8,410 nt of DNA. Origin: a virus (lineage: Duplodnaviria > Heunggongvirae > Uroviricota > Caudoviricetes). The stretch is from IMG/VR virus record IMGVR_UViG_2684622543_000010. The stretch is one strand, 5' to 3'. How positions within the stretch are numbered: the stretch's first letter is position 1; each line of letters opens with the position of its first letter. The position numbers were made by a program, and so were the translations under genes. Below the pieces are notes generated by a model. The model had not been told where the DNA came from. It saw only the letters and a program-made list of their open reading frames with translations, and searched no databases. Below are positions 71 to 7,221 of the stretch, piece after piece.

Positions 71-875
<805 letters not shown>

Positions 876-971
876 ATATATATGTATTTTCTCTGTTAAG
901 CGTGAGCTACGTGAAAAATAATTTTTGGTGTGGGTATTAACTTTGCTTTATTCACGTAGAACACCGTTAAA

Positions 972-3152
972 TCATTCTTCCTCTGGATAGCTTGAACTTA
1001 AGAGCATATCCTGCGTGAACTGGTCATTAGCTGATTGATTGAAAGTAAAGAAAGATGGTTCATCTGGTCGAACGACAACTTGACCACCAAGTGAAACTTT
1101 CACTGGCTCCTGAATACGCTTACTCAAAGCACTAATTTCATCCCTCAGACCCTGAATATCTGCACTCGTTAATGCTGAATCTTGCTTAATGTTGTTTAAC
1201 TCTGGATGATTGAATCTTGCAATATTCATTGTGGCATTGTTAAACAATTCACCCATTGAACTAAAAATTCTACTCCATCCTTCGTTAATCATATTCGGTT
1301 TATTAGGGTCACCAGAATACACGGGATTAAAGTCACTACCCACACCTACCCCAGACGGATGCATATTAGCGTTTTTGACTACTTCCTGATTCATAAAATC
1401 CAGTGCTTTCTTCAATGCATATAAACCAAGAGTGACGCCTCTGATTTGTGGAATCATTGAAGCTAATGCTAACGCTGTTTCATAACCGTCATCAGCATAA
1501 CCAATTGCAAGAGCACTACCTACACCACCAGCTACACCTTTCAGTTTTCCACCACCTTTACCAGTAGCTACCTGACCAGCCACCTGATTAGCTCTTGTAC
1601 CTAACGTTGTGATTGCTCTTGTCAGGTTCATAACCCCTGTAGTAGCACTGAATAGCGTCTTTGCAGATAACGCTATAGCAAGACCTTTGACGAAGTTGAT
1701 AAAACCATCACCGACTTCATCAAGTAGTTTTCGTTTAGTGTCATCAAGGCTGTAATAGAACTTCTTAGTCTGTAAAATCCAGCCTTCAATGGTGTTATTG
1801 AATACGCGAATATCATCTACACCAGCTTTAAGCATGTCGATAAGTCCACCGATAGCATCACCAGCGATAGAAGAACTCATCCCCATTTCACTAAGCAGGT
1901 TACTCAGGCTGGATAAGAAGCCGTTTAGCTCATCCTGTGAACCTGAGAAGATTTTCACCATCGTATCATCCCAATTGTTTGCTAACTTACCTAAAGCTGT
2001 CTGAGTGCTCTTAGTGACTTCAGCCCAGCCACCCGCTTTATCAATCATCAAGCCCATCTGTTTAGCGACTTTAGGGAGAGTATCAGCGGAAAGTACCTTC
2101 CCGTTTTTCATGGCTGCATCAAGCTCTGTAGCAGTCATACCCAATGCTTCAGCGAATAGCTTAAATGCACCAGCCATACGGTCACCTAACTGCCCACGTA
2201 ATTCCTCAGCCTGAATCTTGCCCTTGCTCGCCATCTGCTCAAATGCTCTCAAAATGCCGTTTAGCTCATCGTTAGAAAGCCCCATTAAGCGACTCATAGC
2301 CGTTGCATTACCAAATAGCTCCTGTGTCTGTTCCTGTGACATAGAACCCTGAGCACCTGCTGCAAACTTAGCGTAGCTTGATAGCCCTTCAGAGATATTA
2401 AGACCTGTCTTGTCTGCTAAATTTCGAATAAATACCTCAGCTTCAGATGCTTTATCACCAAGTACAAACTTAGCGGCTCTCTGTGCGGAATCTCGTTTAA
2501 GACCTGCATTCATAATGGCCTTGTAAGCGTTAAGAGCACCCATCACAGAGTAAAATGCACCAGATAATTTAATCGCATTGCTTGCAAGATTATTAAATGC
2601 GTCGCTTGTATTGTTAATGCTGGCGGTCTTTGTCTGTGACCTGAGTTTATTCAACGTTTCACGAAGAGATTGATTTAATTTTGCAAGTTCAGCGTTAAAC
2701 TTTTCACTTCCAATATTACCAGCCTTACCGCTTAAGCTGTAATACTGTGCTTTAAACATTTTAGCCATCAGCGGATTAATATCACCAAGCTTAGACATAT
2801 TCACGCTATGCGCTGCTGTGATTGCTCTGTTTCCGCTAATTCGTGGTTGCCTTGATTGTTTTGGAGGATTAACAGTGTCATTAAATCTGGTGGCAAACTG
2901 AAATGCTTTTGTGCTTCTTGCTCTCTGCTCAATCTTGTCAAAGGTCTTATTAAACTTCCTTTCAAGCTGCCCTAAAGAACTTGTCAGATTGCTGTCAAGT
3001 TGCTTGGTATCGACCTTAAACGCTCTATTCAAATTGCGTTCAATTCTTTGTGCTGACTGCAAAGCTGCCTTTTCAACTCTTTGCAAGCCCTTAATAACGT
3101 TTTCACTGAAACTAAGTTCAACGATAAAACTATCAACTGTGAATTTGCTCAT
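972..3152 (-). CDS. Phage tail tape measure protein (726 aa)
   Basis: Long ORF; SD AGAGGTG upstream of ATG at 3152. N-terminal coiled-coil-like region, central segment typical of the tape-measure domain (RLMGLSNDELNGILRAFEQMASKGKIQAEELRGQLGDRMAGAFKLFAEALGMTATELDAAMKNGKV), Ala/Gly/Leu-rich helical composition and a glycine-rich stretch (GKGGGKLKGVAGGVGSALAIGY). Family assignment from recalled motif patterns, not a search. Confidence 0.8.
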   Translation of the reverse strand: MSKFTVDSFIVELSFSENVIKGLQRVEKAALQSAQRIERNLNRAFKVDTKQLDSNLTSSLGQLERKFNKTFDKIEQRARSTKAFQFATRFNDTVNPPKQSRQPRISGNRAITAAHSVNMSKLGDINPLMAKMFKAQYYSLSGKAGNIGSEKFNAELAKLNQSLRETLNKLRSQTKTASINNTSDAFNNLASNAIKLSGAFYSVMGALNAYKAIMNAGLKRDSAQRAAKFVLGDKASEAEVFIRNLADKTGLNISEGLSSYAKFAAGAQGSMSQEQTQELFGNATAMSRLMGLSNDELNGILRAFEQMASKGKIQAEELRGQLGDRMAGAFKLFAEALGMTATELDAAMKNGKVLSADTLPKVAKQMGLMIDKAGGWAEVTKSTQTALGKLANNWDDTMVKIFSGSQDELNGFLSSLSNLLSEMGMSSSIAGDAIGGLIDMLKAGVDDIRVFNNTIEGWILQTKKFYYSLDDTKRKLLDEVGDGFINFVKGLAIALSAKTLFSATTGVMNLTRAITTLGTRANQVAGQVATGKGGGKLKGVAGGVGSALAIGYADDGYETALALASMIPQIRGVTLGLYALKKALDFMNQEVVKNANMHPSGVGVGSDFNPVYSGDPNKPNMINEGWSRIFSSMGELFNNATMNIARFNHPELNNIKQDSALTSADIQGLRDEISALSKRIQEPVKVSLGGQVVVRPDEPSFFTFNQSANDQFTQDMLLSSSYPEEE

Positions 3153-3250
3153 TCATGTTTCACCTCTTTAAGTGTTCATATACGAAAAAGGGAAAGACTA
3201 CCGATATCACTCGATAATCTCTCCCGTAGATTTTCACCCAACCAATCTTG

Positions 3251-3481: not shown

Positions 3482-4192
3482 TTAAATAGCCTTTGCATAT
3501 TTGCTAGAAATCTTCGTAAGCTGCTCAATATCAGCCTGCATAGCAATCTTCTTAGCATCTTCATATTCTTTCACAAGCTCTTTCATAGCCTGAAGCTCTC
3601 TTGAGAGATACAACTTAACATTATCAAGTTGCTTGTTACGTGATGCCAAGATGTTCTGTCTAGCAATTTCAGCGAGTTCTTCATCGCTCTTATTAGTCAT
3701 GTAAATAAACTGACCAGCACCTCTTGATGCCTTAACCATCTTCACAATTCGATGTCCAGCAGGAAGACTACTAATCACGGCTGCGACGTTTTCTTGAAAA
3801 GTACCAAAACCATCATTATCTTCGTATTGGTAATAGACAAATGGTTTCTGTGACAATTCATCCTGAATCTCAAATTCTGACGGCTCAATAGCTGATTGCA
3901 TCAAGGTAACTTTGCTGTAAGCGTCATCTAATCTAAGGCGCTGTTCTTTCAGCAGTTGGTAATATTTCTTTTCAAGCTCAAGTAATGCTTCACTCTTGCA
4001 AATATCAGGCATCTCTTGAGGCTCAGGAGACACAAAGATGGTTGTTTTTGGTGACATCTTTAGCGATTGCTCAAGCTCAATACGCTTGTCATGCTCTTTA
4101 CGCTGAATAGTGATAGCTGGATGTTCAGTCTGTGGCGACCAGTCACTGAAGCTATCAATCACTTTGCCATTAATGTAAATATCATTTGTCAT
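3482..4192 (-). CDS. Hypothetical protein (236 aa), predicted coiled-coil-rich
   Basis: ATG at 4192 (MTNDIYINGK...) preceded by AGAGGA 6 nt upstream. The track's longer form (start 4240) lacks an RBS and is rejected. No recognisable family. Confidence 0.6.
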   Translation of the reverse strand: MTNDIYINGKVIDSFSDWSPQTEHPAITIQRKEHDKRIELEQSLKMSPKTTIFVSPEPQEMPDICKSEALLELEKKYYQLLKEQRLRLDDAYSKVTLMQSAIEPSEFEIQDELSQKPFVYYQYEDNDGFGTFQENVAAVISSLPAGHRIVKMVKASRGAGQFIYMTNKSDEELAEIARQNILASRNKQLDNVKLYLSRELQAMKELVKEYEDAKKIAMQADIEQLTKISSKYAKAI

Positions 4193-4590
4193 TGCTTTTC
4201 CTCTTCTAAGCGGAAGTGTTTCAGTTTTTAAAAAGCACACCTGACAGCCTATCTAAACTTAGAAGAGACTTAAAAGGCGGTTTGCCAAGTATGCTTTTTA
4301 AAAGCTGAATAGCCCTAGATAATTTCTTATAAAGGGCCATTCATAAGGTGAAGAAATTAAAACATCTAAAGGATTCAAAAAGGATTCAAACGAATGAACA
4401 AGAGTACTTTTCGAGATGACCTCTCAGACTAACCTGAAAGGTCATGTAGCGAAAAGCATTGCACCTTTCAGAATAACTATCATTGATGTAGAATGATTAA
4501 TAGTTTAATTCAGGAAGAGTTGCTCTTCCCTATTACCATCATCTCATGCTTAAGGTTATTTGTCAACAGCTTTTTAACAGATTGGTAACA

Positions 4591-4668
4591 TCAATTCTTA
4601 TTTACCGTATTACCTACCCAGCAACCAACAAATAACCCTAAAGTCATCCAGAGAATAACGAGTGTCAT
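4591..4668 (-). CDS. Candidate 25-aa hydrophobic micro-protein (MTLVILWMTLGLFVGCWVGNTVNKN)
   Basis: Not in the ORF track (too short). ATG at 4666-4668 overlaps the TAA stop of the upstream gene (TAATG), with GAGGTG 5-6 nt upstream; stop TGA at 4591-4593. Sequence is almost entirely hydrophobic (one predicted transmembrane helix). Could be spurious. Confidence 0.3.
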   Translation of the reverse strand: MTLVILWMTLGLFVGCWVGNTVNKN

Positions 4669-4973
4669 TACATCACCTCGCTGTAAGGGTTTAATTCATT
4701 CTGATAGGTCAAGAATACATTCAGCTTCAATAATTGCTCAGGGCTTAAATCAAGTCGATTGCACTCTTCAATGATAAAGCGCTTATTGTATGGGTCTGTT
4801 ACTTCCAGCTTGTGAACATAGTCACCAAGTTTAATTTCGTTGATTATATGCTTGTCAATATACGTTGACGCTTCAAAACAATGCATGAAATAGATATTAA
4901 AGCCCGACCTGTTCAGGTCAATCAACCAATTCATGGTTTCTTGGTCAACCATAATTTGCATTGGGTAATTCAT
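4668..4973 (-). CDS. Hypothetical protein (101 aa)
   Basis: ATG at 4973 with AGGAAGG 9 nt upstream; last gene of the small-gene operon. No recognisable family. Confidence 0.6.
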   Translation of the reverse strand: MNYPMQIMVDQETMNWLIDLNRSGFNIYFMHCFEASTYIDKHIINEIKLGDYVHKLEVTDPYNKRFIIEECNRLDLSPEQLLKLNVFLTYQNELNPYSEVM

Positions 4974-6169: not shown

Positions 6170-6466
6170 TTACCGGCACTTTCCCTTGATAATATTGGTG
6201 GCCCTCAGATTACCGGGGTCACCGTCTTTTAATCGTAGCTGGTGGACTGAATCCCATAAATCGTAATGATACAGCACCGCAAACTTCAAAGCGTCAATCT
6301 TTAAATCTGTCACATCATCGACGAAATAATAATCCCTCCCTTCTTTCTTCGGTCGAATCCGGTAAACTTCCCCGTGAGTATCTTTCATCAAGTAACCTTC
6401 ACGAGAAATGCTGTAACGTCTGAGTAAATAGTCACGGTATTTTCTCTCGCCATTATAAGTTTTCAT
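6170..6466 (-). CDS. Hypothetical protein (98 aa)
   Basis: ATG at 6466 overlaps the TAA stop of the upstream replication-initiator-like gene (TAATG), with GGAGG 9 nt upstream. No recognisable family. Confidence 0.6.
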   Translation of the reverse strand: MKTYNGERKYRDYLLRRYSISREGYLMKDTHGEVYRIRPKKEGRDYYFVDDVTDLKIDALKFAVLYHYDLWDSVHQLRLKDGDPGNLRATNIIKGKCR

Positions 6467-7221
6467 TAAAACATTCCTCCACCATAAACACGTCTGACTT
6501 TAACTTTTTCTTTCTTTGGCTCGGTGTGAGTTTTCTTTTTTGGTGTAAAAGTAAAATCATCGTCACTATCATCAAAGTCATCGAGGTCACTAACCTTGTT
6601 CTTTAGCTTCGCATTTCTGAATCTTTCTTTAATTTCTGCTTTACGCTGTTCACGTTTNNNNNNNNNNNNNNNNNNNNNNNNNNNNNNNNNNNNNNNNNNN
6701 NNNNNNNNNNNNNNNNNNNNNNNNNNNNNNNNNNNNNNNNNNNNNNNNNNNNNNNNNNNNNNNNNNNNNNNNNNNNNNNNNNNNNNNNNNNNNNNNNNNN
6801 NNNNNNNNNNNNNNNNNNNNNNNNNNNNNNNNNNNNNNNNNNNNNNNNNNNNNNNNNNNNNNNNNNNNNNNNNNNNNNNNNNNNNNNNNNNNNNNNNNNN
6901 NNNNNNNNNNNNNNNNNNNNGCTCTGTTAAAACCTCCGGTACTTCATCAAGTGAATAAACTTTAATAACACACTGATTGCTTGCAACGTTAGTTTTCTTG
7001 ATTAAACCATGTGCCTCAAGTTGTTTCATACATGCAATCACGGATGTTCTTGTGATTCCAGCATACTGACCAAGATGAGCATATGAAGGGGTATAATATT
7101 GCCCCTTATCGTGATAAAACTTTTGTTCATTCAACATGACAGTGTAAATAATACGGTCGGCAGCTTTAACGCCATTAGTCATCTGATAAATACGGTCATC
7201 AAACATGTGGAATTTTTCCAT
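6466..7221 (-). CDS. Replication-initiator / replisome-organizer-like winged-HTH protein (about 251 aa as given), interrupted by an N-run
   Basis: ATG at 7221 (MEKFHMFDDRIY...) with AAGGAA 7 nt upstream; the track's upstream extension is rejected. N-terminal ~100 aa has the helix-turn-helix pattern of phage O-type / DnaD-type initiators (RIIYTVMLNEQ...YYTPSYAHLGQYAGITRTSVIACMKQLEAHGLIKK). C-terminus is highly charged (KKK..., DLDDFDDSDDDF). The middle of the protein is unknown because of the N-run. Confidence 0.55.
   Translation of the reverse strand: MEKFHMFDDRIYQMTNGVKAADRIIYTVMLNEQKFYHDKGQYYTPSYAHLGQYAGITRTSVIACMKQLEAHGLIKKTNVASNQCVIKVYSLDEVPEVLTEXXXXXXXXXXXXXXXXXXXXXXXXXXXXXXXXXXXXXXXXXXXXXXXXXXXXXXXXXXXXXXXXXXXXXXXXXXXXXXXXXXXXXXXXKREQRKAEIKERFRNAKLKNKVSDLDDFDDSDDDFTFTPKKKTHTEPKKEKVKVRRVYGGGMF
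6658..6920. other. Run of 263 N (assembly gap or masked sequence) inside the replication-initiator-like CDS
   Basis: Seen directly. Flanking coding segments are in the same reading frame across the run as given, so the N-run may replace real sequence of about this length; its content cannot be assessed. Confidence 0.95.

Follow-up and report, generated by a model that had tools for sequence, protein, structure and literature searches.

Comparative evidence for a predicted single-pass membrane micro-protein encoded at the end of an operon in a satellite-like island of Enterobacteriaceae

Introduction

At least one small membrane protein encoded by phage satellites controls the timing of lysis in infection by the helper phage. 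LidI, from the PLE satellites of Vibrio cholerae, is expressed on infection by ICP1, collapses lysis inhibition, and accelerates lysis in the helper infection (Hays and Seed 2020, PMC7182436). It is the only transmembrane-containing ORF of these satellites, is 66 or 121 amino acids long, and was overlooked by annotation in PLE1 to PLE3 until it was found by synteny (PMC7182436). The locus described here is a 25-codon micro-ORF in a stretch of 8,410 nucleotides that was analyzed as a whole (the window). Like LidI, its product consists of little more than membrane-spanning sequence, is the sole conserved membrane candidate of its element, and is encoded in an island bounded by a large serine recombinase. 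The two differ in length (66 or 121 residues for LidI versus 21 to 25 here) and in that LidI has experimental evidence, whereas the micro-ORF is known from sequence. LidI appears to be the closest functional precedent by resemblance of context and not by homology, and membership in one family is unlikely given the lengths.

A second group of comparable proteins is found on the chromosomes of enterobacteria, where MgrB, AcrZ, MgtS, KdpF, PmrR, and CydX are single-pass inner-membrane proteins that bind larger membrane proteins. Their genes belong to the chromosomal core or to regulons and have promoters of their own, and their partners are known. The micro-ORF peptide shares with them a length below 50 residues, a single helix with a short polar tail, small-xxx-small motifs, and the property of being routinely missed by gene callers. 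In contrast to these proteins, it is encoded on a mobile island as a coupled last cistron and is shorter than most of them, and no sequence relationship to them was found in Pfam or NCBIfam.

Holins and pinholins also combine membrane helices with glycine-zipper-type packing motifs, and the presence of at least one transmembrane domain, which defines holins, is predicted for the micro-ORF peptide as well (residues 2 to 19). However, holins are generally at least twice as long (typically more than about 45 amino acids), end in a charged C-terminal domain, frequently show dual starts, and are encoded beside an endolysin, none of which is seen here. Assignment as a holin or pinholin was rejected: the window contains no endolysin, spanin, or holin family, the neighbors of the micro-ORF are a 101-aa protein and a promoter, and the 25 (or 21) residues end in a 6-residue tail with a single Lys instead of a charged domain.

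Results

Position and start signals of the micro-ORF

The coding sequence of the micro-ORF lies at 4591..4668 on the minus strand, with the ATG at 4668-4666 and the TGA at 4593-4591. Its 25 codons plus TGA encode MTLVILWMTLGLFVGCWVGNTVNKN, and the minus-strand letters across it read, 5' to 3', ...CAGCGAGGTGATGTAATGACACTCGTT...AATAAGAATTGA. A Shine-Dalgarno (SD)-like GAGGTG (4674..4679, minus strand) is placed 5 nt 5' of the ATG, within the final codons of an upstream 101-aa ORF (4668..4973, minus strand) to which the micro-ORF is coupled in the window. The TAA of the 101-aa ORF (4670-4668) and the ATG of the micro-ORF (4668-4666) have one base in common, giving a TAATG stop/start overlap at 4666..4670 (minus strand), which is the predicted termination-reinitiation coupling junction of the micro-ORF. 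The sequence-only reading of this DNA, which did not give the strand, had pointed to a hydrophobic ORF of 25 codons, to GAGGTG, and to the TAATG overlap; all three are present as it described, on the minus strand. It had also taken the micro-ORF to be coupled to the last gene of the operon. The start/stop overlap with the preceding gene holds, but the last cistron of the operon is the micro-ORF itself.

Among the 45 ATG-initiated ORFs of 18 to 45 amino acids in the six frames of the window, the micro-ORF has the highest hydrophobicity and is the only hydrophobic one with an SD-like motif. Hydrophobicity and an SD-like motif, when taken alone within the window, are weak evidence for a gene. The comparative data are decisive in indicating that the micro-ORF is real, with 108 of 110 loci intact and a coding signature in its frame only.

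Two other arrangements at the start site were considered and rejected. A programmed frameshift joining the 101-aa protein to the helix is not supported by the upstream families, none of which shows a slippery heptamer ahead of the overlap (by inspection), and sequestration of the start codon by RNA structure is at odds with a folding z score of -0.09. The 101-aa ORF itself has no family in Pfam, PHROG, NCBIfam, or PADLOC. The search for its homologues gave 32 sequence clusters from Escherichia, Shigella, and Citrobacter, and the AF2 model of the protein (pLDDT of 49) is unusable.

Conservation among related islands

Related loci numbered 110 and came from Escherichia, Shigella, Salmonella, Citrobacter, and gut metagenomes; in 108 of them the micro-ORF is intact at the same position. 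It occurs as two types, type A with 25 codons (86/110 loci) and type B with 21 codons and the sequence MELVIICFVLIGMIAGASIKV (22/110 loci). The first 16 E. coli loci had the micro-ORF at the same site, with its start overlapping the upstream stop in 16/16, and the set was widened via species-representative genomes, IMG/VR, and metagenomes scanned for the conserved promoter motif. Sufficient upstream sequence was available for 111 loci, from which L036, a chance pattern match, was left out. The two exceptions among the remaining 110 are L081, where the micro-ORF is cut by foreign DNA, and L111, where an internal deletion shifts the frame. By species, the micro-ORF was found in E. coli, E. albertii, Shigella, Salmonella, and Citrobacter, a taxonomic range drawn chiefly from E. 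coli genomes, from metagenomes, and from the names of proteins, as the species-representative genomes gave 3 loci only. The copies in Salmonella, E. coli O55:H7, and E. albertii are intact.

The start signals are conserved along with the frame. In 18 of 18 distinct upstream contexts, TA directly precedes the ATG, and at locus L007 an ATGA overlap takes the place of TAATG. Each upstream context that was encountered also has an SD-like purine run, in the form of GAGGTG, AAGGTGGTG, TGAGGGT, or TGAGGAT, and as AAGGGA in Citrobacter. Conservation in relatives had been proposed as a check on the ORF and its start codon, and it was borne out for the micro-ORF, the start codon, and the purine run alike. 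Coupling persists where the upstream gene belongs to a different family. In Citrobacter islands (L118-L120, positions 6546-6620; L117, positions 6325-6549) an extra 74-aa gene lies upstream of the micro-ORF; in Citrobacter braakii it is inserted between a 102-aa ORF and the micro-ORF, which is kept as MGLVIAWALLGLLIGCWINNTINKN and is TAATG-coupled to the inserted gene. A Citrobacter freundii lineage has undergone a 12-nt in-frame deletion between GTAAT repeats that removed the ATG and codons 2 to 4 and left the remainder intact. The gene can therefore be lost and is dispensable or decaying in that lineage.

Type B occupies the same site with the same TAATG coupling, and its DNA diverges from that of type A after the first few codons. 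It again encodes one hydrophobic helix with a GxxxG motif and a C-terminal Lys.

Coding signature of the micro-ORF frame

The type A set comprises 56 distinct DNA sequences that encode 32 distinct peptides, with 13, 11, and 20 variable sites at codon positions 1, 2, and 3, respectively. Pooled Nei-Gojobori estimates give a pS of 0.49 and a pN of 0.15, for a pN/pS ratio of 0.31. The micro-ORF frame is the sole sense frame open in 56/56 type A sequences, with zero stops or frameshifts; the other two sense frames have pN/pS ratios of 1.02 and 1.31 and contain stops in 56/56 sequences, and the three antisense frames range from 0.47 to 1.55. Ten positions of the type A peptide are invariant (M1, L3, W7, L10, G11, G15, C16, N20, N23, and N25), of which L3, L10, G11, G15, C16, N20, and N23 are nonetheless encoded by two to four synonymous codons each (four for L10; three each for L3 and G11). 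The replacements observed elsewhere are conservative hydrophobic swaps of the I/V, A/L, F/L, and W/I/L kinds. The pN/pS ratio and the intact loci show the micro-ORF to be a short ORF under peptide-level purifying selection, as expected of a gene for a small membrane protein. From these alignments, the micro-ORF is very probably a real protein-coding gene.

Predicted topology of the peptide

Residues 2 to 19 of type A are uncharged and hydrophobic and form a predicted transmembrane helix, which is followed by the tail NTVNKN. The mean Kyte-Doolittle hydropathy over the first 19 residues is 1.95, compared with at most 1.31 for the other eight window proteins scored, so that the peptide is the sole predicted membrane protein among the nine (Kyte-Doolittle threshold of >1.6). 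A small-residue motif runs along the helix as G11xxxG15xxxG19 in type A, where position 19 is G, N, or A, and as G12xxxG16 in type B. The single positive charge is near the C terminus, and type B has Glu at position 2. Given this charge distribution and the positive-inside rule, the peptide most likely inserts into the inner membrane with its N terminus out and its C terminus in. It is likely, judging from composition and predicted topology, that the micro-ORF product is a single-pass membrane peptide.

Clustering of the variable positions on one helical face was not significant in a permutation test (P = 0.46), and a defined packing interface is therefore not claimed. Either peptide type can be found together with any clade of the upstream and downstream genes, with no co-variation. 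This free combination favors self-association or a partner outside the island and gives no indication of an island-encoded one.

The invariance of G15 and C16, which holds in 57 type A sequences despite synonymous changes, would also be expected if the product were a pro-lipopeptide and not a membrane-spanning peptide. Residues 1 to 15 would then function as the signal peptide of a lipoprotein, its lipobox being L-[F/L]-[V/C/I]-G-C16, and removal of this signal peptide would leave the 10-residue CWVGNTVNKN lipid anchored in the outer membrane. Positions -4 to -2 fit the lipobox in 57/57 type A sequences, position +2 is never Asp, and the conserved polar residues N20, N23, and N25 all fall in the putative mature part. 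Lipoprotein signal peptides normally carry Lys or Arg in their N-terminal region, whereas no variant of the peptide has either residue before position 24, the second residue being G, T, M, S, or A. A lipobox is lacking in type B, in which the Cys is residue 7 and follows Ile, and no lipoprotein family or model was matched. A lipid-anchored product is consequently judged improbable. Type A would in that case be the smallest bacterial lipoprotein precursor yet seen, and CWVGNTVNKN, once sorted to the outer membrane, could change how Felix O1-like phages adsorb or how their DNA enters, a scenario to which we assign a low probability.

The operon end and the downstream promoter

A putative sigma-70-type promoter is located directly 3' of the micro-ORF at 4538..4566 (minus strand), with TTGACA at 4566-4561, a 17-nt spacer, and GATGAT at 4543-4538. 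It scored 10/12 consensus matches in the promoter scan and has TG ahead of the -10 hexamer, which is CATAAT in most relatives and GATGAT in the window, L001, and L002. Conservation of the promoter is 0.95 to 1.00 in 79 loci, a value that is in part by construction, since the loci were picked by a pattern from this region. The promoter is predicted to drive the block of genes for a 236-aa protein, a tape measure protein, and a Dit-like protein and to mark the end of the micro-ORF operon; no intrinsic terminator was found between it and the micro-ORF.

Three TGTTR motifs with 11-nt spacing (at 4590, 4579, and 4568; 4564..4590, minus strand) extend from just after the micro-ORF stop into the -35 hexamer. 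Their conservation is 0.97 to 1.00 in 79 loci, again in part because a motif from this block was used to select the loci, and they may constitute a regulator-binding array. A short inverted repeat, GGAAGAGCAACTCTTCC, lies 3' of the promoter at about +1 (within 4513-4590, minus strand). Together, the promoter, the TGTTR repeats one helical turn apart, and the inverted repeat look like a tightly regulated switch for the tail genes.

Further downstream, within the otherwise variable leader of the 236-aa gene, a 20-nt block (GAAAGGTGCAATGCTTTTCG; 4450-4469, minus strand) is 99 to 100% conserved in 79 loci. It may represent a strong SD followed by the ATG of a very short ORF whose length varies (MLFAT* here); alternatively, it may be an RNA element or a protein-binding site. 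Just 5' of the ATG of the 236-aa gene (4192), an imperfect hairpin of about 90 nt with an A/T-rich stem (TTCAGCTTTTAAAAAGC...GCTTTTTAAAAACTGAA) spans 4220-4309, and in Rfam it was seen solely as sub-threshold matches to plant miRNA precursors.

The proximity of this promoter bears on whether the product of the micro-ORF or the act of translating it is what matters. The micro-ORF stop is always 19 to 25 nt before the -35 hexamer of the near-invariant promoter, and the micro-ORF travels with the promoter module and not with the upstream gene, as would be expected if translation kept the tail of the operon transcript covered by ribosomes (as a guard against Rho termination or RNA decay, for instance) or modulated the promoter. 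Purifying selection at the peptide level would be unexpected on such an account, as would residues that stay invariant under synonymous change, a strictly fixed length of 25 or 21 codons, and a GxxxG helix kept in type B, where the sequence has been replaced. A role for translation as such is for these reasons considered a distinctly poor prospect.

Antisense strand and comparison with type I toxins

The peptides of type I toxin-antitoxin systems such as Ibs, ShoB, TisB, and DinQ, which have 18 to 30 hydrophobic residues, are similar in size and composition to the micro-ORF peptide. With 25 residues and a hydropathy of 1.95, the latter is a small hydrophobic peptide of the kind that defines these toxins, and the composition of type B presumably resembles that of IbsC. 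The sequence-only reading had named type I toxins among small single-helix peptides of this sort; in such a module the product would be a membrane-depolarizing toxin curbed by an antisense RNA. One antisense frame is indeed open in 56/56 type A sequences, with a pN/pS ratio of 0.47, a result that would be anticipated on the strand opposite a hydrophobic ORF and is hardly informative. However, a consensus scan of the sequence found no antisense RNA gene and no conserved antisense promoter: the only plus-strand site in the vicinity (4467-4494) has 9/12 matches and falls within a stretch that about 47% of relatives have. Nor is the locus a stand-alone one, as the micro-ORF lacks its own promoter and a structured leader, its start overlaps the stop of the preceding gene in all loci, and the predicted RNA fold around the start is at the level of shuffled sequences (z = -0.09). 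No toxin family (Hok, Ldr, Ibs, ShoB, TisB, Fst, etc.) was matched in Pfam or NCBIfam at E values of up to 10, and there was no Rfam match. The toxin proposal was therefore abandoned as very unlikely.

Weakest of all, and extremely unlikely, is a chance ORF conserved at the DNA or RNA level as a promoter upstream element or operator: the last 10 nt of the micro-ORF and the flanking promoter DNA do have a conservation of 0.89 to 1.00, but the body of the micro-ORF is less conserved as DNA (0.63 to 0.89) than the promoter, its variation falls mostly at third codon positions, and the zero stops and frameshifts of its frame contrast with the stops throughout the other two sense frames, so that the coding signature, the retention of type B, and the SD-like run together exclude a chance ORF and argue against conservation purely at the DNA or RNA level.

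Database searches

The description of the micro-ORF as unannotated was confirmed by its absence from the PGAP tables of annotated relatives. Neither peptide type has a family in Pfam, NCBIfam, or PADLOC; the best Pfam or NCBIfam match at E values of up to 10 was a sub-threshold one to PetG (E = 0.14 to 0.2), and a PDB profile search with the peptide gave nothing below an E value of 0.15. By tblastn, no peptide match was obtained in 50,697 phage records, and in 72,556 plasmids there was only a chance match in Streptomyces. Exact look-up of the ten commonest peptide variants retrieved 0/10 from a collection of predicted proteins numbering about 15 billion. When 2.9 million viral contigs (IMG/VR) were scanned with a back-translated motif, nine matches were returned, all of them copies of the same island. 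A literature search with peptide substrings found no paper containing either peptide, and an Rfam scan of the whole window gave nothing relevant, with just sub-threshold matches to eukaryotic snoRNAs and miRNAs. As far as these searches extend, the micro-ORF appears to found a small new family of membrane micro-proteins that is restricted to one family of islands in Enterobacteriaceae.

The host island

About 84% of the window can be matched to E. coli chromosomes, with an identity of about 91%, and no match beyond a few hundred bases was found to sequenced phages or plasmids. In annotated relatives the host element is a chromosomal island of about 10 kb (L001, 1340-12504), most of which is represented by the window. 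It is inserted at several sites, such as wrbA/ymdF or tonB/yciI, in Escherichia, Shigella, Salmonella, and Citrobacter, and the flanking sequence of the island is present in 478 of 5,426 complete E. coli genomes (about 9%). A large serine recombinase is encoded at one end and a small resolvase-type recombinase at the other.

All of the island genes are on the minus strand of the window. The early part encodes, in order, a Dam methylase that has an HTH domain, a replication-initiator-like HTH protein, and several small ORFs, followed by the 101-aa ORF and the micro-ORF; after the micro-ORF come the promoter and genes for the 236-aa protein, a protein of about 70 aa, the tape measure protein, and the Dit-like protein. 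The replication-initiator-like gene is interrupted in the window by 263 N (masked) at 6658-6920, leaving its ORF incomplete. This early region is strongly mosaic in makeup; the 101- to 109-aa protein falls into at least two divergent families, and many copies have a gene for an HNH endonuclease among the small early ORFs (L003, L004, L006, L008-L010, and L012-L014). The 236-aa protein (3482-4192, minus strand) is identical to a Shigella sonnei protein. It has no match in Pfam, PHROG, NCBIfam, or PADLOC, and its roughly 3,100 homologues are without a domain call, for which reasons its RefSeq name, transposase, appears unsupported.

No capsid, terminase, or lysis genes were found in the island. 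By gene content the element is not a phage and resembles a phage satellite, with an architecture like that of the PLE type. A literature search that paired Felixounavirus or Felix O1 with "satellite" yielded no paper describing it. The Dit-like protein of the island is 72% identical to the product of a gene beside the tape measure gene of lytic Felixounavirus phages, and the tape measure proteins are 33% identical. Positions 122-3173 of the window correspond to 77022-80029 of Escherichia phage garuso (L121), and patches with DNA identities of 88 to 93% occur in 213 phage records. This relatedness suggests that tail-tip genes pass between the island and Felix O1-like phages or that these phages are its targets.

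The copy of the island in the window looks to be decaying, as its Dit-like gene (122-815) is a pseudogene that is split over two frames and ends abruptly at base 122. Bases 1-129 match noncoding DNA of Shigella sonnei large plasmids at 98.5% and are probably the end of an insertion sequence.

Discussion

The comparative evidence points to a protein-coding micro-ORF that serves as the last cistron of the regulatory and replication operon of the island. Ribosomes that finish the preceding gene would restart at the overlapping ATG of TAATG, aided by the SD-like purine run. The product would be a peptide of 21 to 25 residues that is nearly all one transmembrane helix and resides in the inner membrane. 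Its small-residue motif is of the kind that packs helices closely and would favor helix-helix association in the membrane, either with itself, as a leaky oligomer that lowers the membrane potential, or with a membrane protein of the host or helper phage. When the operon is switched on, membrane-dependent steps of the helper or attacking phage could be altered, such as lysis timing, holin triggering, or DNA entry.

These proposals differ in strength. A phage-related membrane role is put forward by analogy with LidI and is tentative, a possibility that we consider rather less than even. The earlier suggestion of a small lysis or membrane-modulating factor is plausible, and there is no lysis cassette in the window around the micro-ORF. 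The lack of holin, endolysin, and spanin genes in the island is a point against a link to lysis, and the loss of the gene in the C. freundii lineage, the frameshift in L111, the truncation in L081, and the apparent decay of the island copy in the window are points against the explanation as a whole. Taken together, with most weight given to the gene and the membrane claims, the account of a gene, a membrane peptide, and its role seems reasonably probable.

Taken alone, the micro-ORF is a modest finding, as small hydrophobic proteins on mobile elements are already known. It adds a never-annotated and well-supported gene family to a mobile island with flanking sequence that occurs in about 9% of complete E. 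coli genomes and illustrates that comparative data can validate ORFs below the cut-offs of gene callers. The island may be the more interesting object, because lytic Felixounavirus phages have relatives of its Dit-like and tape measure genes. As the sole predicted membrane component in the window, the micro-ORF peptide is a natural first target for studying how the island acts on the cell envelope or on phages. Felix O1-like phages are used in the biocontrol of Salmonella and E. coli. If the island is a satellite of, or a defense element against, such phages, the peptide could affect the timing of lysis or susceptibility to these phages.
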